From a virus (Duplodnaviria > Heunggongvirae > Uroviricota > Caudoviricetes): DNA of 19,056 nucleotides. The notes under the pieces were generated by a model, which saw only the letters and a list, made by a program, of their open reading frames with translations, was not told the origin of the DNA and ran no database searches. The stretch's first letter is position 1. Each line of letters begins with the position of its first letter. Location: the IMG/VR virus record IMGVR_UViG_2695420589_000003. One strand, written 5' to 3'. A program made the translations under genes and the position numbers. Positions 2,851-17,391 of the stretch are shown here, one piece after another.

Positions 2851-3285
2851 NNNNNNNNNNNNNNNNNNNNNNNNNNNNNNNNNNNNNNNNNNNNNNNNNN
2901 NNNNNNNNNNNNNNNNNNNNNNNNNNNNNNNNNNNNNNNNNNNNNNNNNNNNNNNNNNNNNNNNNNNNNNNNNNNNNNNNNNNNNNNNNNNNNNNNNNNN
3001 NNNNNNNNNNNNNNNNNNNNNNNNNNNNNNNNNNNNNNNNNNNNNNNNNNNNNNNNNNNNNNNNNNNNNNNNNNNNNNNNNNNNNNNNNNNNNNNNNNNN
3101 NNNNNNNNNNNNNNNNNNNNNNNNNNNNNNNNNNNNNNNNNNNNNNNNNNNNNNNNNNNNNNNNNNNNNNNNNNNNNNNNNNNNNNNNNNNNNNNNNNNN
3201 NNNNNNNNNNNNNNNNNNNNNNNNNNNNNNNNNNNNNNNNNNNNNNNNNNNNNNNNNNNNNNNNNNNNNNNNNNNNNNNNNNNNN

Positions 3286-4544: not shown

Positions 4545-4562
4545 NNNNNNNNNNNNNNNNNN

Positions 4563-5312: not shown

Positions 5313-5811
5313 NNNNNNNNNNNNNNNNNNNNNNNNNNNNNNNNNNNNNNNNNNNNNNNNNNNNNNNNNNNNNNNNNNNNNNNNNNNNNNNNNNNNNNNN
5401 NNNNNNNNNNNNNNNNNNNNNNNNNNNNNNNNNNNNNNNNNNNNNNNNNNNNNNNNNNNNNNNNNNNNNNNNNNNNNNNNNNNNNNNNNNNNNNNNNNNN
5501 NNNNNNNNNNNNNNNNNNNNNNNNNNNNNNNNNNNNNNNNNNNNNNNNNNNNNNNNNNNNNNNNNNNNNNNNNNNNNNNNNNNNNNNNNNNNNNNNNNNN
5601 NNNNNNNNNNNNNNNNNNNNNNNNNNNNNNNNNNNNNNNNNNNNNNNNNNNNNNNNNNNNNNNNNNNNNNNNNNNNNNNNNNNNNNNNNNNNNNNNNNNN
5701 NNNNNNNNNNNNNNNNNNNNNNNNNNNNNNNNNNNNNNNNNNNNNNNNNNNNNNNNNNNNNNNNNNNNNNNNNNNNNGCGTCTTCTGGTGCGGCTGCGGA
5801 ATCGGCTTTTT

Positions 5812-6504
5812 TCAGGGCGCGGGAAAGGGNNNNNNNNNNNNNNNNNNNNNNNNNNNNGTTGCAATCTCGCGTTTCACACCTGCGTTCTGGTTCAGATGCA
5901 TCGCTTCGCGCAGCAGCTTCAGTGATGAGGCCATGCTGTCCGCATCGCTCAGGCCACGGCGGGCAAAGGCGCACGCCTTGCATAATTTGGCGCGCACTTC
6001 GTCCGGCATATCCTGGTTGGCGACAATTTCCCAAAGTGTGTCCAGTGGTTCGATAAAGACGGACAAATCCGCGTCGGCATCCGTCCCGGCCTGCGTCAGT
6101 ACCGGATTGCAGATTTCTTCGGTCAGCACTGTGGCAGCAGTACGGCCAAAGTTATCCGGCATGATGAGGTTGTGACGGACCGCATACGCACCAATACGCA
6201 GCGCAAGCGGAAGATCGCCGCAGTCAATCGCCCACACCATCAGCGTGGCAATCACTTCGTCCTGTTGCCCGCCGTCAGCCTCCAGCGTTCCCTCAATCCA
6301 GCCGGAAAAGTCCGGCAACAACGCTTTTTTGATGTCGGCTTTCGCGCTTCTGGCCTGTACGCCCTTAAGCCGGGCCTGTGCCAGACGCAGACGATACAGC
6401 ACCTCTTCATGCGCGGTACGCGCGGCGTGGTCCACACCTTCATTCGCCCGGCCTGCGCGCTGTGCCATCACGTTCTGCCAGTGTTGCTGTGCAGGAGTAA
6501 TCAT
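5812..6504 (-). CDS. M: Terminase small (endonuclease) subunit gpM; 3' end uncertain because it crosses mask 5830-5857
   Basis: ATG 6504 with GGAGAG RBS; the block MPDEVRAKL and overall profile resemble recalled P2 gpM; synteny N-M-L. Confidence 0.8.
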   Translation of the reverse strand: MITPAQQHWQNVMAQRAGRANEGVDHAARTAHEEVLYRLRLAQARLKGVQARSAKADIKKALLPDFSGWIEGTLEADGGQQDEVIATLMVWAIDCGDLPLALRIGAYAVRHNLIMPDNFGRTAATVLTEEICNPVLTQAGTDADADLSVFIEPLDTLWEIVANQDMPDEVRAKLCKACAFARRGLSDADSMASSLKLLREAMHLNQNAGVKREIAXXXXXXXXXXPFPAP

Positions 6505-8462: not shown

Positions 8463-8858
8463 AGTTTTTGCCCCTCTGACTGGTTCTTCAGTCATGATGG
8501 CAAAGCGTAACAGGCTGATACAAAGGGCTTTTGTTGTAAGAAAACGGCCAGAACAGGGGGNNNNNNNNNNNNNNNNNNNNNNNNNNNNNNNNNNNNNNNN
8601 NNNNNNNNNNNNNNNNNNNNNNNNNNNNNNNNNNNNNNNNNNNNNNNNNNNNNNNNNNNNNNNNNNNNNNNNNNNNNNNNNNNNNNNNNNNNNNNNNNNN
8701 NNNNNNNNNNNNNNNNNNNNNNNNNNNNNNNNNNNNNNNNNNNNNNNNNNNNNNNNNNNNNNNNNNNNNNNNNNNNNNNNNNNNNNNNNNNNNNNNNNNN
8801 NNNNNNNNNNNNNNNNNNNNNNNNNNNNNNNNNNNNNNNNNNNNNNNNNNNNNNNNNN

Positions 8859-10399: not shown

Positions 10400-11445
10400 T
10401 GAGCAGAAAAAATAAAAAAGTGCGCATGAGTTCACGCATTGATCTCGCTGATGCGCTCAGGAAAGAATCGTCGCTCAGTGCATTCACATTTGATGGTCCT
10501 TACCGCCTGACCGGGCATGACCTGCTGGACAATATGTACTGTGCTGATAACGGGCGGTGGTATGAAACCCCGGTGGACTGGTACGGTCTGGCAAGAGCTG
10601 CCCGGCAAACGTCCTGGCATCAGTCTGCGCTTTACTTTAAGCGCAATGTATTGCTCGGCTGCTATATTCCGCACCCGCTGCTTTCCCGGCAGGATTTCTC
10701 GGCGCTGGCGCTGGACTGGTTTGTGTTCGGTAACGCATTCCTTGAGCTTCGGAGCAATATGCTCGGCGAACCGCTTAAATTACGGCACGCCCTGGCGAAA
10801 TACATGCGACGCGGAAGCGATCTTGAATCATGGTGGTATGTGCAGGATGGCAAGGATGCGTTTCAGTTTCGTCCTGGCAAAGTGTGCCACCTGATGAATC
10901 CGGATATTAACCAGGAAATCTACGGCATGCCGGAATATCTTGGCGCATTACTCTCGGCCAGCCTTTCTCATTCGGCGGACATGTTCAGAAAACTGTACTA
11001 CGACAACGGATCCCACGCCGGGTGCATCATCTACATCGGTGCAGCGCAGGTAAACCGCGAAAGCATGGACTCCCTGAAAGAAACGCTACAGGGGGCACGT
11101 GGTGGTGGTGCGTTTAAAAACGTGCTCATTCATGCGCCCAACGGGGGCAAAGAGGGGGTGCAAATTTTGCCGTTCCAGCAGATCACCGCAAAGGATGAGT
11201 TCATGAATGTTAAGGCGGCATCCCGTGATGATGTGCTGGCTGCGCACCGCGTTCCGCCGCAACTGATGGGGGCGATGCCGGGCGAAAAAAGTGCGTTTGG
11301 TGATGTGGAGAAGGCCGCGCGGGTTTACGCAATTAACGAGCTGATGCCCGTCATGGAGGCCATGAAGCACATCAATGACTGGCTTGGCGAAGAGGTGATC
11401 CGCTTTAACCCTTACGCACTGTTAGACACCCAGCCCACATCCTGA
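10399..11445 (+). CDS. Q: Portal protein gpQ
   Basis: 348-aa ORF (P2 gpQ about 344 aa) starting MSRKNKKVRMSSR; GGAG RBS; last late gene before the presumed cos region, as in P2. Confidence 0.9.
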   Translation: MSRKNKKVRMSSRIDLADALRKESSLSAFTFDGPYRLTGHDLLDNMYCADNGRWYETPVDWYGLARAARQTSWHQSALYFKRNVLLGCYIPHPLLSRQDFSALALDWFVFGNAFLELRSNMLGEPLKLRHALAKYMRRGSDLESWWYVQDGKDAFQFRPGKVCHLMNPDINQEIYGMPEYLGALLSASLSHSADMFRKLYYDNGSHAGCIIYIGAAQVNRESMDSLKETLQGARGGGAFKNVLIHAPNGGKEGVQILPFQQITAKDEFMNVKAASRDDVLAAHRVPPQLMGAMPGEKSAFGDVEKAARVYAINELMPVMEAMKHINDWLGEEVIRFNPYALLDTQPTS

Positions 11446-11471
11446 CGCGCTTCGCTTGTCTGCTGCTTCGC

Positions 11472-11496
11472 CGGGGCATAAAAAATTTATGCCCCG
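11472..11496 (+). terminator. Perfect 11-bp stem / 3-nt loop hairpin (CGGGGCATAAA-AAA-TTTATGCCCCG) 27 nt after the Q stop
   Basis: Read directly; no U-tract follows on either strand, so not a canonical intrinsic terminator. Confidence 0.35.
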
Positions 11497-11782
11497 ACTC
11501 TCCAGCTCCTGTATCAGTCAGATAATTTCACGACGCTTTCCTGCTGATTGCCATCATCGACAGTCAGACTCTTACGCAATCCCACCTCGTTGACTGCATA
11601 TTCTCGCCGTCTCAGTGCGATTTTGACGGCCTTACCTTTCACCCCATCAAATCAAAAGCCCTCACGTCTTTTTCACGCTCAGCGTGAGAAATACAGCCAT
11701 TCTGTTGTATCTCTGCGACATCGTTCAGGGAATGCTATTTACCCCCTGAAACGCGGGCTGTTCCCCCGTCACCTGCGCGCAG

Positions 11783-11826
11783 AAAAAACGCGTTTTTTTG
11801 TGCATGCACGGATCCTTGACGGATCC
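11783..11826. repeat. Cluster of palindromes: AAAAAACGCGTTTTTT (11783-11798), GTGCATGCAC (11800-11809), GGATCC-N5-GGATCC (11810-11826)
   Basis: Read directly from the sequence. Confidence 0.6.
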
Positions 11827-11870
11827 AGCCGCCACGCGGGCCGGAAGGGCAAAAAGTCGTTCAAAAAAAT

Positions 11871-11896
11871 TGTGCAAATTTGTGCACTATTGTGCA
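11871..11896. repeat. Three TGTGCA hexamers at exactly 10-bp spacing (11871, 11881, 11891); a fourth copy at 11799
   Basis: Read directly; helical phasing suggests a protein-binding array. Confidence 0.6.
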
Positions 11897-11936
11897 TTTA
11901 TAAAATCAACTAAAAAACACCTAGTGTGACTTACCT

Positions 11937-12122
11937 CTACCACTCGATCGGCACGTAGTCATTAAGTTCCGGAGACCAATTGCACTTTTCACATCTGTGT
12001 TTTCCATTCTGGCAGATACATAAACGATAACGGCCACAATGCGGGCACCCATTTTCACCATTATCATAATCACCGAGCGACCATTCCTGCATAAGCAGCT
12101 CTTCTTCATCATCATTTAGCAT
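11937..12122 (-). CDS. Small Cys-rich (zinc-ribbon-like) protein with an acidic N-terminus; island gene 5
   Basis: 61-aa ORF with ATG 12122, AGGGGGA RBS and a Cys cluster (C-x2-C-x5-C-x-C-x6-C-x2-C); last gene of the minus-strand island. Confidence 0.55.
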   Translation of the reverse strand: MLNDDEEELLMQEWSLGDYDNGENGCPHCGRYRLCICQNGKHRCEKCNWSPELNDYVPIEW

Positions 12123-12136
12123 TAATCCCCCTTGAG

Positions 12137-12376
12137 CTATTTACTCTTCTCGGCCCTCAAAATCATACGAGAACCATCATCCAGCTCCCAATTAATTTCA
12201 CCGCCTTCTGCCATGACTAGATGCCAAACGAGTTGAGCGGCCTCGTTGGTTACATCGCGACCGCGATCATTTCCTACGCGGCGTTTTGTTCCGTCTCCTA
12301 AGTCACGCATTTTTGCCAATACGATGGTTTTTGATAGCGGTGAAAAACCAAGCTGTAGTCGTGCTGAATTACTCAC
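12137..12376 (-). CDS. Hypothetical protein (79 aa from GTG, or 57 aa from the internal ATG); island gene 4
   Basis: ORF whose GTG start overlaps the stop of the upstream 174-aa ORF (GTGA); no recognisable motif. Confidence 0.4.
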   Translation of the reverse strand: MSNSARLQLGFSPLSKTIVLAKMRDLGDGTKRRVGNDRGRDVTNEAAQLVWHLVMAEGGEINWELDDGSRMILRAEKSK

Positions 12377-12897
12377 TGGCTGCCCCCTTTGTACTGTGTT
12401 AACTCTTCCTGCTCCTGCATCATGCGATTGACCTGAACGCGTGTGCGTCGAACGGCAAAATTAAATTGAAACATGAGCCGGAACATTTCTGATGCTTCCG
12501 TGTGAGCATCACGGATAGGTGACAGGCGGTACAGTTCTGCCTCCGTAGCTTGTTGAATCAATGACAGATCAAATTGAAGTGCGGGTCTGGTACATTTTGC
12601 ACATCTGGCAGCAAGCTCCGGTATTAGTCTCTTAACGAAGGTGTTTTGCACCGCTTTGTTGATTTGTGTCTGCATCCAAATCGCAAATTTCAGCGAACGC
12701 ATAAGTTTGATAGCCTCGGGCAGCGGCAGATAGATCATGCTGGTAGATTTGGGTGGTTGGTGAACCATCTTCACGGATACGCGATTTCGCAGCGTTCGGA
12801 AAATCGTGTTCCCAACAACAGCTTCTACGGATACAGGACAGGGAGCCAGACCAGCCCGCAGTGCTTCTTTCATTAGCATGTATTCGTATTTTTTCAT
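12373..12897 (-). CDS. Hypothetical basic protein (174 aa); island gene 3
   Basis: ATG 12897 with GAGGA RBS 6 nt upstream; no recognisable domain. Confidence 0.55.
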   Translation of the reverse strand: MKKYEYMLMKEALRAGLAPCPVSVEAVVGNTIFRTLRNRVSVKMVHQPPKSTSMIYLPLPEAIKLMRSLKFAIWMQTQINKAVQNTFVKRLIPELAARCAKCTRPALQFDLSLIQQATEAELYRLSPIRDAHTEASEMFRLMFQFNFAVRRTRVQVNRMMQEQEELTQYKGGSQ

Positions 12898-12957
12898 CGT
12901 GTTTTCCTCGTGCGGGGCGACAGTGCACCCCGATAAAATTAAAAGCCGTCAAATTCG

Positions 12958-13121
12958 TCATTCAGGAAATAATGCCCGGATATTCCCTGCTATCTGACTG
13001 GTTATCTGTGCGGTTGGTACTGGCTGTGGCACGGGGCGTTCTGTCCTGGTTTGTGTCACCGATAACGCCTCATCGTCAGCCCATGCAGCCAGTCGGTAAG
13101 CCTCTGCTGGATTCATTTTCA
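12958..13121 (-). CDS. C-terminal 53 codons of an ORF starting in mask 13122-13387; candidate ParR-like adaptor by position only
   Basis: Open minus-strand frame ending at stop 12958, immediately downstream of the ParM-like gene, which is where parR sits in parMRC loci. No motif verified. Confidence 0.3.
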
Positions 13122-13387
13122 NNNNNNNNNNNNNNNNNNNNNNNNNNNNNNNNNNNNNNNNNNNNNNNNNNNNNNNNNNNNNNNNNNNNNNNNNNNNNNN
13201 NNNNNNNNNNNNNNNNNNNNNNNNNNNNNNNNNNNNNNNNNNNNNNNNNNNNNNNNNNNNNNNNNNNNNNNNNNNNNNNNNNNNNNNNNNNNNNNNNNNN
13301 NNNNNNNNNNNNNNNNNNNNNNNNNNNNNNNNNNNNNNNNNNNNNNNNNNNNNNNNNNNNNNNNNNNNNNNNNNNNNNNNNNNNNNN

Positions 13388-14299
13388 CACCCCGTCCGCG
13401 ATGAAAGTCGCATTAACTCCGCAGGCTTCGCGGATAGCGGGTGCCACAATCTCCGCCCCTCCACCGACAACCATCACCCGCCCGTAACCCGAAAAACCCG
13501 CCAGCGCGCGGATCACGCGTTGTTTCAGTGTTTCTTCCTTTTCACGAATAACCGCCATCAGGCTGGCGTAATGCGCGTCATTGTGGATGTGCTGGCGCAG
13601 CCAGGCTTCATCATGGCGATGTTCGATAATGGTATTGGCGATGTGGTGACTGGTGCGCATACCGTTAGTGGCCATCACCGACAGTACGGCATCGGCCATC
13701 AGAGAAACGCCTACGTGTGGATCGCAAAACACCTGGCTGATACCTGCCAGTTGCCCCTGAACCTTTGCCACATCCAGCGTGGTTCCGCCCAAATCCACAA
13801 TCAGCAGGGATTCAAACGGACTCATGTCAGCCAGTGCCTTAAAGCCAGCCGGAATGGATTCAGGCATAACCCGCACGTTACGGATAGTGAATGCTTCGCC
13901 GTTCTGGTACTCCACCGGGCGCATAACGTTCGCTTTTTTGCGGTTGATGTTGGCCATGTCCGGCTGTGCGTTTGTGTCGAAATACTCGCTCAGTGGCAGG
14001 GTGACAACCACATCCACCTCCTGTGGCGTGATGCCTGATTTGACCAGCGCGTGATGAATGGCAATGACATTTACATCGCTGTACTGGTATTGCGTGTCGG
14101 TTGTCTGGACAAAGCGATCGCTGACCGGATCAAAACCATAGCGCACGCCATCAAGCATGTAGTTCGCGGGCTGCATGCCACCGAACGGCGCAGACCATTC
14201 CGACTTGAAGCTGTTCGGGCTGATGGCGTTGCGGCGTTCGCCGTTCTCAGTCCATGCCAGCTTGATGTTGGTGGAGCCGTCGTCGATACAAATTTTCAT
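13388..14299 (-). CDS. ParM/StbA-like actin-fold ATPase (304 codons visible; C-terminus masked)
   Basis: N-terminus MKICIDDGSTNIKLAW closely matches recalled R1 ParM; all three ASKHA nucleotide-binding motifs present: DDGSTNIK (14261-14284), LIVDLGGTTLD (about 13778-13795), VMVVGGGAE (13451-13477); AAGGA RBS before ATG 14299. Confidence 0.85.
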
Positions 14300-14330
14300 G
14301 TCGCTTTTCCTTATGTTGATTAATTAATCG

Positions 14331-14442
14331 TTTACGGGATTCTGAAATCCCGTTTTTGCCTGTTTTGTGCGCGCTTCATATATCGCTGCGCGTTTTTTGC
14401 TCATTTACGGGATTCGTGAGTCCCGTTTCTGTCTGTTTTTTG
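14331..14442. repeat. Two copies, 73 bp apart, of a ~36-bp element TTTACGGGATTC-(loop)-TCCCGTTT-T-rich; each forms a hairpin followed by a T-run on the plus strand
   Basis: Copy 1 at 14331-14366 (hairpin 14335-14352) in the A/ParM spacer; copy 2 at 14404-14442 inside the last codons of A; loop differences are compensatory. Confidence 0.6.
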
Positions 14443-16785
14443 TTTCCACTGGTCAGGCCACCCCGCAGCAGGTCTGCTTTGCGGCGGGCGCGTTCAGTGG
14501 TTTCACTGATTCTCTGTGCGTGCTCTGCGTCGCGGATGGCGCGCAGCATGTCAGAAAGCACGGTAACGGGTGTTTTCATGGTGTTCTGGTCCTGCTGAAG
14601 TGTGGATGCCAGGCGTGCGGCGGCTTCAGGGTCTGATGCCCCCAGCTGTGTCAGATAGCTGGCGACCGGGTTATGGCGGATCTCCGTGCTGCTTACGCCA
14701 TGATTACGGCTCAGGCGCTGCCAGAGCTGCGTGATTCGGCTGTCCGGGCGGGTATCCGGTTTGCGTACAATTTCAAATCCCTGCGGTGCAATGATGCTGC
14801 CGTCAACGTACAGACTGCCGCCCCGTAACAGGTGCTGCATCTGTTGTTCACCGATATGCAGGCCGAGAGATTCAGCAGACTCCCGCCATTCTTTAGCGAG
14901 TAATTCGTGGTTATCAGGCAAAGGCCGCTGCTGTTTGCGGCTCTGTGTCCAGCTCTGCATTTCATCACTGCTGTTTTTTGCCTGTTTGTCACGAAGCGAA
15001 CGCATCAGCGCCCGGCGTTCGTGCCGTTTCAGTGAGCGCATCCATTCATCCACATCAACGCCGTCAGGGAGCTGCGGCCACGGTGCTGGCCGTTCTTCCG
15101 GCTGTTCTGTCCCGTTGTTGTCCGTTTCCTGTACACGGGGACAGTTATTGCCACGAGTCCAAGGGGCGGCAGGGCCGCCCTGAAGGTCAAAACCATTTTC
15201 GCGGGCGCTGTCTTCCGCTTCCGGTTTGCGTCTTACCAGCTTCCAGTTATCCGGATGCGTGCACACACGGGAGGATTCCCCGATGAGTGGTGACCAGATC
15301 CCGTAAATCTGTACGCTCTGTTCGCCGTAATCGTTCAGCTCATCGGCGAGGTCGTAGGCGGTGCGAATCAGGTAGTCTTTGCGTGGAACAAGTACGCCGC
15401 CCTGTTTCTCTATGTAGGTGGCAAAACATCCGGCATCAGCGGCGGCAAGAACCGCATCCATTGCGTCATCCTTCAGCCGTTGCGGGCCTTCCGGGTTGCG
15501 TGCCATCTGGCTGGCAAGGCGGCGCAGTTCACGCCATACCTGGCGGGAGGGGATGCCAAAGAACTGGAACTGGCGGACCCGGTGAAGGCGCGCCCAGCCG
15601 ATGGCGCGTTCCACGCTCTCGGCCATTGATTTTCCGGTTTCGTGGTCAACGCGTGGCTTGCCCGTTTTCGGGTCGATGCCATCCACGGCGCGGCTGTCCA
15701 GGTTTTTCCCGATGTAGGTGGCGATGTAGCTGGTTGGCGTGCCTTTTGAGCCGTCTACATACTCCGCCTTAAAGCGCGGAGTTATGTCATCGCCCAGCTC
15801 GTGACGATCTTCCTGAATGGCAATATCGCGGGTGTGGGACACAATGGTGTCGATTTCTTCCGGATGAGCAAAGACCATCATATGCCAGTGCACGGTGCCG
15901 TCATGGTGAGGCTCCGCCGTGCGGATGCCATACCAGCGCAGGCCGTCGCGGTTCAGTTTTTTGCGGACCGTCGCAAAAAACGTGTTAACCAGGTAATCGC
16001 TGGAGTCGCGCATTGTGGCCCCGTTCCATTTGGGATTCGGATGACCGTTCTCCGTTGTGGCGTGGTATTTTGACGGGCAGGTGACAGTCAGAAACACCGC
16101 TTTGTCGCCACGGGCTTCGGCCAGAAGTTCCAGCCCCTTCATGGTGGCCATCATTTCTGCCTTACGGTGAACCGGGTTACTTACTCCCGCGTAATACACC
16201 GTCTCGAGATCAATCGTGAACCCGTCTTCATTTTCCAGCATGAAACTTTTCAGGAAATCGCGTGTTTTCTCGCGCTGTGCGCGAAACTCGCTTAACGCGT
16301 CCTGGCTCAGATAGGGCGATGTTTTTCTGGAAACCAGACAGGCGGCGCGAAGTTGTTCTTCTCTCCACTCGCAACGTAACAGCCACAGTTTGCGTTTCCA
16401 CCATTCCGCACAGGTCAGGCGAAGGATTGCGCCCGGCAGCAGTTCTGTGTCCGGTTCGTGCCTCCGGTCTTTGTCTGTTGTCAGTGCGTCATAATGCGGA
16501 GGCATGGCGTGTAAGTGTAACGCCATGCGGGCCAGCATCTGATACGCCTTCAGCGTTACATCCATGGTCAGCTCGCCATCAGTCGCGCCAAAACCATCGC
16601 AGAGTTTTTCGAAGGTGCTGCTGAACATCGCCGCCGTCATGGTGGCCAGCGTCTGTATCTGGTGTTTGTTGAGTTGCGGCAGGTAAAGCAAATCGTCCAG
16701 GCGTTCACGTCCGGCAAGGGAGCGATAACCCGGTGTCAGCCAGTGTCCGTCAGTGCGATCCAGACGTTCGAATATTTTGCGCAGG
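14376..16785 (-). CDS. A: Rolling-circle replication initiator gpA (HUH endonuclease); 5' end in mask 16786-17312
   Basis: Contains EPHHDGTVHWHMMVF (HUH motif) and YIATYIGKNLD (paired catalytic Tyr), matching recalled P2 gpA; about 803 codons visible. Confidence 0.9.
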
Positions 16786-17391
16786 NNNNNNNNNNNNNNN
16801 NNNNNNNNNNNNNNNNNNNNNNNNNNNNNNNNNNNNNNNNNNNNNNNNNNNNNNNNNNNNNNNNNNNNNNNNNNNNNNNNNNNNNNNNNNNNNNNNNNNN
16901 NNNNNNNNNNNNNNNNNNNNNNNNNNNNNNNNNNNNNNNNNNNNNNNNNNNNNNNNNNNNNNNNNNNNNNNNNNNNNNNNNNNNNNNNNNNNNNNNNNNN
17001 NNNNNNNNNNNNNNNNNNNNNNNNNNNNNNNNNNNNNNNNNNNNNNNNNNNNNNNNNNNNNNNNNNNNNNNNNNNNNNNNNNNNNNNNNNNNNNNNNNNN
17101 NNNNNNNNNNNNNNNNNNNNNNNNNNNNNNNNNNNNNNNNNNNNNNNNNNNNNNNNNNNNNNNNNNNNNNNNNNNNNNNNNNNNNNNNNNNNNNNNNNNN
17201 NNNNNNNNNNNNNNNNNNNNNNNNNNNNNNNNNNNNNNNNNNNNNNNNNNNNNNNNNNNNNNNNNNNNNNNNNNNNNNNNNNNNNNNNNNNNNNNNNNNN
17301 NNNNNNNNNNNNCGGGGATCCCCGTTCCTTCACGCCCCACTGCGTGGCGCGGTTGTTGCCAGTCCCTGATGTACTCTGCCGTCATAGTGAT

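Follow-up and report, generated by a model that had tools for sequence, protein, structure and literature searches.

The 19,056-nucleotide stretch of viral DNA recorded as IMGVR_UViG_2695420589_000003 (hereafter the window) is a P88-like prophage (Xuanwuvirus, Peduoviridae, P2 family), in which two 42-nt direct repeats lie where the replication endonuclease gene A meets the actin-like ATPase gene parM. An earlier note on this DNA read the two copies as tandem hairpins with T-runs, which would act as plus-strand terminators or mark recombination scars. We consider it likely that they are the two halves of a split, R1-like parC, that is, a centromere and operator site of the parM-parR (parMR) cassette that would be bound by the product of parR; that the site serves as an operator as well as a centromere is probable. 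If so, a known kind of system accounts for most of the finding. Naming parM and parR in such prophages is already routine in automatic pipelines; no description of a cis site in P88-like phages was found in the literature searched. A parC at 14328-14442 would also explain the conspicuous "terminator pair": the hairpin and T-run appearance of the + strand would be a by-product, namely what a palindromic protein site with A-tracts after it looks like on the complementary strand.

The repeat pair exists as the earlier note described it, with copies 73 bp apart. In a repeat search, 34 of 42 positions match (81%) between copy 1 (14328-14369; TCGTTTACGGGATTCTGAAATCCCGTTTTTGCCTGTTTTGTG on the + strand) and copy 2 (14401-14442; TCATTTACGGGATTCGTGAGTCCCGTTTCTGTCTGTTTTTTG), with a start-to-start distance of 73 bp. 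None of 1000 dinucleotide shuffles of 14200-14600 reached this score, the best of them giving 29. Inside each copy is a 20-nt palindrome, ACGGGA-N8-TCCCGT (14334-14353 and 14407-14426), and the only two exact matches to this pattern in the whole 19-kb window are those at the repeat pair. The blocks end 29 nt (copy 1, proximal) and 102 nt (copy 2, distal) upstream of the parM ATG at 14299, and the pair falls in the stretch 30-145 nt upstream of parM. The region that contains them occurs at 1443 places in 1304 of 5426 E. coli genomes, with at most three places per genome, and of the 40 matches listed, 39 overlap the replication endonuclease gene, the exception being one 35-nt fragment; it is not a dispersed element.

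The gene identities that had been proposed for A (Pfam Phage_GPA) and ParM were confirmed. On the - strand the order is A, a 76-nt gap, parM, parR and then cargo, followed by cos and the portal gene on the + strand. The 1 kb around the repeats shares 96.7-99.4% identity with Escherichia phage P88 and further Xuanwuvirus phages, and the same 1-kb stretch was found in 1373 of 5426 complete E. coli genomes. Because the window is masked with N in places, P88 (L001) was taken as the unmasked reference (window coordinate = L001 + 7999 near the repeats). The parR product of P88 matches Plasmid_stab_B (1.6e-24), and a profile of these ParR proteins matches the solved structure of pB171 ParR, 2JD3, with E = 1.7e-14. 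Together with the full-length StbA_N and C-terminal domain matches of ParM, these matches identify a genuine type II partition operon of the R1/pB171 family. A ribbon-helix-helix ParR gene is present in the same cassette in P88 and in 12 related loci, and ~94% of the P88-like prophages of E. coli have parMR as a conserved block. It is only after parR (~11899-12956) that the cargo of the window and that of P88 differ, and the description of the repeats as lying at an "A/island junction" is therefore not upheld.

The two blocks follow parM rather than A. The ParM related-locus search returned near-identical loci only, and more distant relatives were reached through protein searches. Measured from the parM ATG, the core motif GGG-N10-CCC starts at -125 and -52 in the window, at -124 and -51 in Hafnia L012/L013 (ParR 74% identical), at -131 and -59 in Plesiomonas L019 (ParM 63%) and at -128 and -55 in a second Hafnia lineage, L022 (ParM 62%). 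The spacing within the pair is 72-73 bp in all of these, and both blocks occur together in every parM-bearing relative of the clade examined. In L022 the gene upstream of the sites is a 167-aa open reading frame (ORF) and not A, from which it follows that the pair is older than the junction with A. In Enterobacter L021, A and the repeat-bearing parM leader have a methyltransferase gene and a small ORF between them. Conversely, a P88-like prophage of E. coli SCU-387 with other cargo (L002) matches the window at 94% identity between 15000 and 14467 and is unrelated to it below 14467; it lacks parMR, the repeats and the window-type A tail. This type of junction is present in 8-9 genomes. The A 3' segment occurs at 1529 places in E. 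coli genomes and the repeat region at 1443, so that ~6% of copies are A without the repeats. Plasmid relatives, whose ParM is 47-52% identical, have no GGG-N10-CCC sites and carry T- or A-rich iteron arrays of their own; they would support the architecture and not the sequence. These comparisons show that the repeats are best assigned to the par cassette rather than to A.

A different arrangement is seen in P2-like prophages of Serratia and Enterobacter (L020 3387-3440, L021 3383-3450), where the parMR leader has a large inverted repeat rather than two direct blocks. Its arms of 14-20 nt (GAAATAGAAAAATG / TGGGAACAATATAGAAAAAT) are 26-28 nt apart, and the motif ACAGGCAAAAACGGGA is common to these leaders and the window. 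This looks like a different centromere layout within the same cassette family.

The linkage also bears on the proposal that the copies are passive recombination or duplication scars at a cargo-exchange boundary and that the duplication extended A. The point where homology with L002 stops, 14467, is only 25 bp from copy 2, and the A tail differs between cargo types, as this proposal would have it. However, both copies lie on one side of 14467, within the par module, and the element was not found at the other junction type examined. The pair, its spacing and its distance from the parM ATG are kept across lineages with 62-63% ParM identity, including one with a gene other than A upstream, and in 15 P88-type alleles the arms are nearly invariant while the centres, spacer and flanks vary. 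We therefore regard the scar explanation as very unlikely.

An origin of replication is another reading that the position of the repeats brings to mind: they lie at the 3' end of A and could be part of the phage replication origin, or of a single-strand initiation signal for the A nickase. Hairpin palindromes and bent DNA are common at rolling-circle origins, and in P2 and 186 the origin is inside the 3' part of A; a literature search on the P2 origin and nick site gave nothing usable. Against this, L002-type prophages have the adjacent A 3' segment at 94% identity without the repeats, other genes stand between A and the repeat-bearing leader in L021 and L022, and the sites go with parM, their distance from its ATG being constant. 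The origin is accordingly the explanation to which we give least credence.

The overlap with A appears to be a consequence of where the cassette was joined. Copy 2 had been said to encode the last ~13 residues of A; it encodes ~14 residues (NKKQTETGLTNPVNE), which end seven codons before the TGA at 14376-14378. The window A ends in ...RRKADLLRGGLTSGNKKQTETGLTNPVNEQKTRSDI and that of L002 in ...RRKADLLQSWLNNRNKE, the L002-type protein stopping 20 codons earlier with unrelated residues. The A stop codon of Hafnia L013 is a TGA inside the distal palindrome itself, and the 789-aa A of Plesiomonas likewise overlaps the distal site. On the simplest reading, the last 24-30 codons of A (14376 to ~14466) would be incidental read-through into the DNA of a mobile par module with its left edge at 14467, A overlapping the distal block because its frame stays open into the cassette as far as the first stop. 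The DNA of the distal block would then be constrained as a putative binding site rather than as coding sequence. The suggestion that A carries a C-terminal extension thus holds insofar as the tail is tied to repeat-bearing DNA, L002 having lost both; that the duplication created the extension is not supported, since L022 has the pair with a gene other than A upstream. The same tail with no repeat nearby, which the earlier note named as the observation that would count against it, was not seen in L002, the sole relative of that kind examined.

The parM leader carries a second feature of par sites. On the parM sense strand, AAAC-type motifs stand at leader offsets 32, 42, 64, 75, 105, 115 and 137, which are multiples of ~10.5 bp. 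In an unbiased scan of the whole window for AAA/TTT periodicity of 10-11 bp, the segment 14316-14441 ranked first of 3056, and the top 15 segments all overlap it. The same scan placed the R1-type parC, used as a positive control, first of 766 in its own locus, and the parM leaders of an IncL/M plasmid (L007), of L012 and of L020 also rank first. The phasing implies that the DNA at 14316-14441 would be intrinsically curved.

The T-runs of the + strand belong to this array, and this has consequences for the idea that the copies are working Rho-independent terminators, which would stop read-through from the portal, cos and cargo side before it enters A, either as their sole function or as a second role. 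The resemblance is evident. A G+C-containing stem, a short loop and a T-rich tail are the marks of intrinsic terminators, and a terminator scan of the + strand gave both copies as the best matches in 11000-15500, with 8 pairs (4 of them G-C), a loop of 4 and tails TTTTTGCCTGTTTT and TTTCTGTCTGTTTTTT. Both sites are also called in the closely related Hafnia module L012, and the portal operon is transcribed toward the repeat region. At -11.4 and -10.2 kcal/mol, though, the folding energies are modest, and the z-scores are only near -2. The repeats are not at the end of a + strand unit: the nearest + strand gene end is that of the portal gene at 11445, ~2.9 kb away, everything in 11900-14299 is on the - strand, and terminators at this place would shield A and not parMR. 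The relatives L019 and L022 keep both sites and their spacing, but their antisense strands fold into stems of only 3-4 bp (GGG(C)/CCC, 10-nt loops), which are followed by CUAACUUGCG, AGCGCGUG, AUAGAAGG and GAAAAGGC rather than by T-runs, and the scan called no terminator in either locus. Finally, the T-runs are part of a helically phased array of 115 bp, not merely tails after the stems. What survives of the terminator claim is thus the look and not the function, which we judge improbable.

A related possibility is that the palindromes act in the sense A-parM RNA, as a processing or stability hairpin or in translational control of parM, or else as an operator for a protein other than ParR. On the - strand the hairpins fold about equally well, with z-scores of -3.5 and -3.1. 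They lie between genes that are co-oriented and, with no recognisable promoter between them, probably co-transcribed, and the variants A1>G and C18>T in the arms of copy 1 stay compatible with G.U pairing on the sense strand. However, among 16 alleles and three distant lineages no compensatory change in the stems was found; there are single transitions and arm shortening only, and therefore no RNA covariation. The T>C change in copy 2 breaks a sense-strand pair, L019 retains only the GGG/CCC complementarity, and an Rfam search of 13900-14900 (E <= 1) gave no match. An RNA element would also leave the two copies at a fixed 72-73 bp and the phased A-tracts unaccounted for, and this explanation is in our view slightly less probable still than terminators. 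The earlier statement that loops differ while pairing is preserved is accurate as far as the six-base arms go, but what the arms display is plain conservation, and the stem of copy 2 has a T.G pair where copy 1 has T-A. The distal site of Hafnia L012 is a perfect 16-bp palindrome, GGGATTCATGAATCCC, in which the outer AC/GT pairs have been lost and inner pairs gained, a pattern that would be expected of a dyad-symmetric protein site and not of a stem of fixed length.

For a protein site of this kind the candidate ligand is ParR. Among E. coli alleles of P88-like prophages, identity of ParR ranges from 100% down to 52%, with the divergence in mid-protein; the ParM clusters, among the matches listed, have at least 92% identity. 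Conserved in ParR are the N-terminal ribbon-helix-helix half (MTTPTRRISFYLKPAAVK...RAAFLAGLAL; TRRISFYLKP...) and a C-terminal tail, NI(R/Q)A(L/F)FPE. The strand TRR(I/V)SFYL goes together with GGGA...CCC sites in four lineages and NRKISFYL with a different layout in two (L020, L021), the corresponding strand of R1 ParR being RRTIAFKL. This pairing is consistent with ParR reading the sites, and the independent lineages are too few for proof. The divergence among E. coli alleles was also considered as a covariation test, which was dropped as uninformative because the divergence is in mid-protein while the DNA-binding half and the sites are conserved. The hypervariable part is the middle third of the protein (alleles P0019-P0061; loci L010-L017), and it could be either a fast-evolving linker or the result of selection for distinct segrosome compatibility groups.

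From these features the following mechanism can be envisaged. ParR dimers, through their ribbon-helix-helix domains, would bind the GGGATT-N4-AATCCC palindromes and perhaps also the AAAAC-type turns that flank them within each 42-bp block. Bending of the 115-bp region by the phased A-tracts would let the spacer loop out and bring both blocks into a single segrosome, where the conserved C-terminal tail of ParR might capture the ends of ParM filaments. The filaments would then move or position the copies of phage DNA, excised or replicating. ParR binding may also autoregulate parMR. The two GGGATT-N4-AATCCC sites 73 bp apart offer precise targets for asking why an integrating P2-family phage with rolling-circle replication, found in ~24% of complete E. 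coli genomes, retains the partition machinery of a plasmid. An active site would enlarge the small set of cytoskeletal partition systems known from integrated elements by an example that is widespread in enterobacteria.

Several points weigh against a split parC. ParR binding is something that we infer, as are centromere activity and a role in the phage, and the intactness of the cassette in the window is deduced from P88 and other relatives, parR and the 3' end of parM being masked. R1 has a promoter between its blocks that has no consensus counterpart here: scans of the window, L012, L019 and L022 leaders, spacer included, gave no match to the sigma-70 consensus, although weak promoters could escape such scans. 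The unit is a palindrome in a 42-bp block and not a clear tandem array of 11-bp iterons, so that the stoichiometry may differ from that of R1; an iteron sub-structure of 10-11 bp is hinted at by the AAAC phasing and is not clear-cut. The helical phasing is weak in L019 and L022, and the link between ParR strand residues and site type comes from few lineages. Nor does the proposal account for the need of an integrating phage with rolling-circle replication for a centromere.

Table 1. Coordinates of the putative parC site and of neighbouring genes in the window
Feature	Position	Strand	Remarks
Gene A (replication endonuclease; Phage_GPA, 7.9e-131)	14376..17198	-	TGA stop at 14376-14378; start taken from P88
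parM (actin-like ATPase; StbA_N, 4.9e-82, and ParM C-terminal domain)	13340..14299	-	3' end in N run; end coordinate from P88
parR (Plasmid_stab_B, ribbon-helix-helix centromere-binding family)	12958..13335	-	start approximate, by homology to P88 gp18
Distal 42-bp block of putative parC (copy 2)	14401..14442	-	inside the 3' end of gene A; direct repeat; kept in all P88-type relatives examined
Distal palindrome, ACGGGAC TCACG AATCCCGT (sense)	14407..14426		core GGG-N10-CCC begins 125 nt upstream of the parM ATG
Spacer between blocks, 31 bp	14370..14400	-	holds the A stop codon, 14376-14378
Proximal 42-bp block of putative parC (copy 1)	14328..14369	-	A-parM intergenic region
Proximal palindrome, ACGGGATT TCAG AATCCCGT	14334..14353		core GGG-N10-CCC begins 52 nt upstream of the parM ATG
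Phased A-tract array, AAAC motifs on the parM sense strand, ~10.5 bp	14316..14441	-	the "T-runs" of the + strand
Upstream edge of par module	14443..14467		homology with other-cargo P88-like prophage stops at 14467
TTAATCAA motif (sense), between proximal site and parM ribosome-binding site	14316..14323	-	window, L019, L022

Two further details of the leader can be recorded. The TTAATCAA motif is kept in the window, Plesiomonas L019 and Hafnia L022 despite diverged surroundings, and is a poor fit to a -10 hexamer or an IHF site. The spacer contains a small inverted repeat, CGCGC-N15-GCGCG, around GATATAT, which overlaps the A stop codon; its centre differs among alleles (for example CCATAAAACATG in L015) and its GC arms are mostly retained. 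By eye, neither an IHF consensus nor the Ogr/delta late-promoter dyad (TGT-N12-ACA) was found.

The window contains nine N runs (2013-2051, 2209-2779, 2851-3285, 4545-4562, 5313-5777, 5830-5857, 8561-8858, 13122-13387 and 16786-17312), which create artificial fused ORFs in the ORF list, such as that at 13076-14299 (407 aa). The run at 13122-13387 hides the 3' end of parM and most of parR, of which only the 3' part at 12958-13121 (the last ~165 nt) is readable, and the 5' end of A is lost in the run at 16786-17312. Between the flanking alignments the masked parM-parR stretch measures 267 nt against 201 nt in P88, an excess of 66 nt, so that either the window parR allele or the length of the mask may differ from P88. 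The cargo of the window (11899-12956) comprises a 174-aa ORF with neither a Pfam nor a PADLOC match, a DUF7446 protein (12137-12376) and a 61-aa Cys-rich ORF (11937-12122); a PADLOC scan of ParM, ParR and the three cargo ORFs gave no match to a defence system.

In E. coli GCA_029502935.1 (L010 5102-5410) the cargo includes a second Plasmid_stab_B (ParR-like) gene besides the parMR after A, and this gene adjoins an SSB gene and a HigB/HigA-like pair. In a decayed P88-like prophage of E. coli EC7518 (L028, NZ_CP085183.1, 2501-2545), a deletion took A, both blocks and several early genes, and parM keeps only 35 nt of its leader, fused beside a DUF4761 gene. A P88-like prophage lies inside the 272-kb IncHI2 plasmid pS2122_1 of Salmonella enterica (L018), where the early genes, A, parMR and the part up to the capsid genes were seen, with a ParM 100% identical. 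Plasmid-borne places are otherwise only two among the ~1500 of the E. coli set, the L018 plasmid being a PLSDB match in addition.

A broader proposal, which we put forward as speculative and rather doubtful, is that the P88-like prophages found in about a quarter of complete E. coli genomes possess a functional actin-type centromere with its distal half inside the replication-initiator gene. The ParR-parC-ParM complex would position or segregate rolling-circle phage DNA after induction, or in a transient plasmid-like carrier state, as AlpAC of CGP3 or srpMRC of SXT do for their elements, and the palindromes would serve in addition as antisense terminators or roadblocks protecting A. The chromosomal parC might also exclude, by incompatibility, plasmids or phages that have the same centromere.

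The closest known counterpart of the site is parC of plasmid R1, which reportedly belongs to the ParMRC type II partition system described by Dam and Gerdes in 1994. R1 parC consists of two sets of five 11-bp iterons around a 39-bp promoter region, is 159 bp long in total and strongly curved, and binds approximately one ParR dimer per iteron (PMC2241845; PMC5016525). As in R1 (Hoischen et al., 2008; PMC2241845), the cis site here lies directly upstream of parM-parR and is split around a spacer, with 2 x 55 bp and 39 bp in R1 and 2 x 42 bp and 31 bp (115 bp in total) in the window, a 42-bp block corresponding to four helical turns. The parM sense strand is likewise A-rich with 10-11 bp phasing, and the cognate ParR is in the same Pfam family. 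In contrast to the ten tandem 11-bp direct iterons and defined spacer promoter of R1, there is one palindrome of 16-20 bp per block and no consensus promoter. ParM is ~47% and ParR ~25-27% identical to the R1-type proteins, the replicon is an integrating P2-like prophage and not a plasmid, and the distal block overlaps coding sequence. The ribbon-helix-helix ParR family is shared with pB171 par1 (2JD3) and with pSK41. In centromeres of that type, ParR dimers occupy the repeats and build up a helical segrosome (PMC5016525). Their repeats have another sequence and layout than those of the window, the pSK41 array being continuous where the present one is split.

Actin-type partition loci on integrating elements have precedents. 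In the SXT/R391 integrative and conjugative elements, which undergo rolling-circle replication when excised, the srpMRC locus has its centromere upstream of the M gene, with a few 13-bp repeats, direct and inverted, to which the R protein binds (PMC4489591). SrpR, however, has no recognisable similarity to ParR and SrpM is distant from ParM, whereas the prophage proteins are bona fide members of the R1/pB171 family. In the Corynebacterium prophage CGP3, the AlpAC system, an actin-like filament with a DNA adaptor that acts on leader repeats (alpS), is needed for efficient replication of the excised phage DNA (PMC4446434). There the adaptor gene comes first, the repeats are 24 short TTAAnnG motifs, the proteins are unrelated and the host is Gram-positive, unlike the situation in the window. 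In function, AlpAC is nevertheless a plausible parallel to a par locus carried by an integrated prophage.

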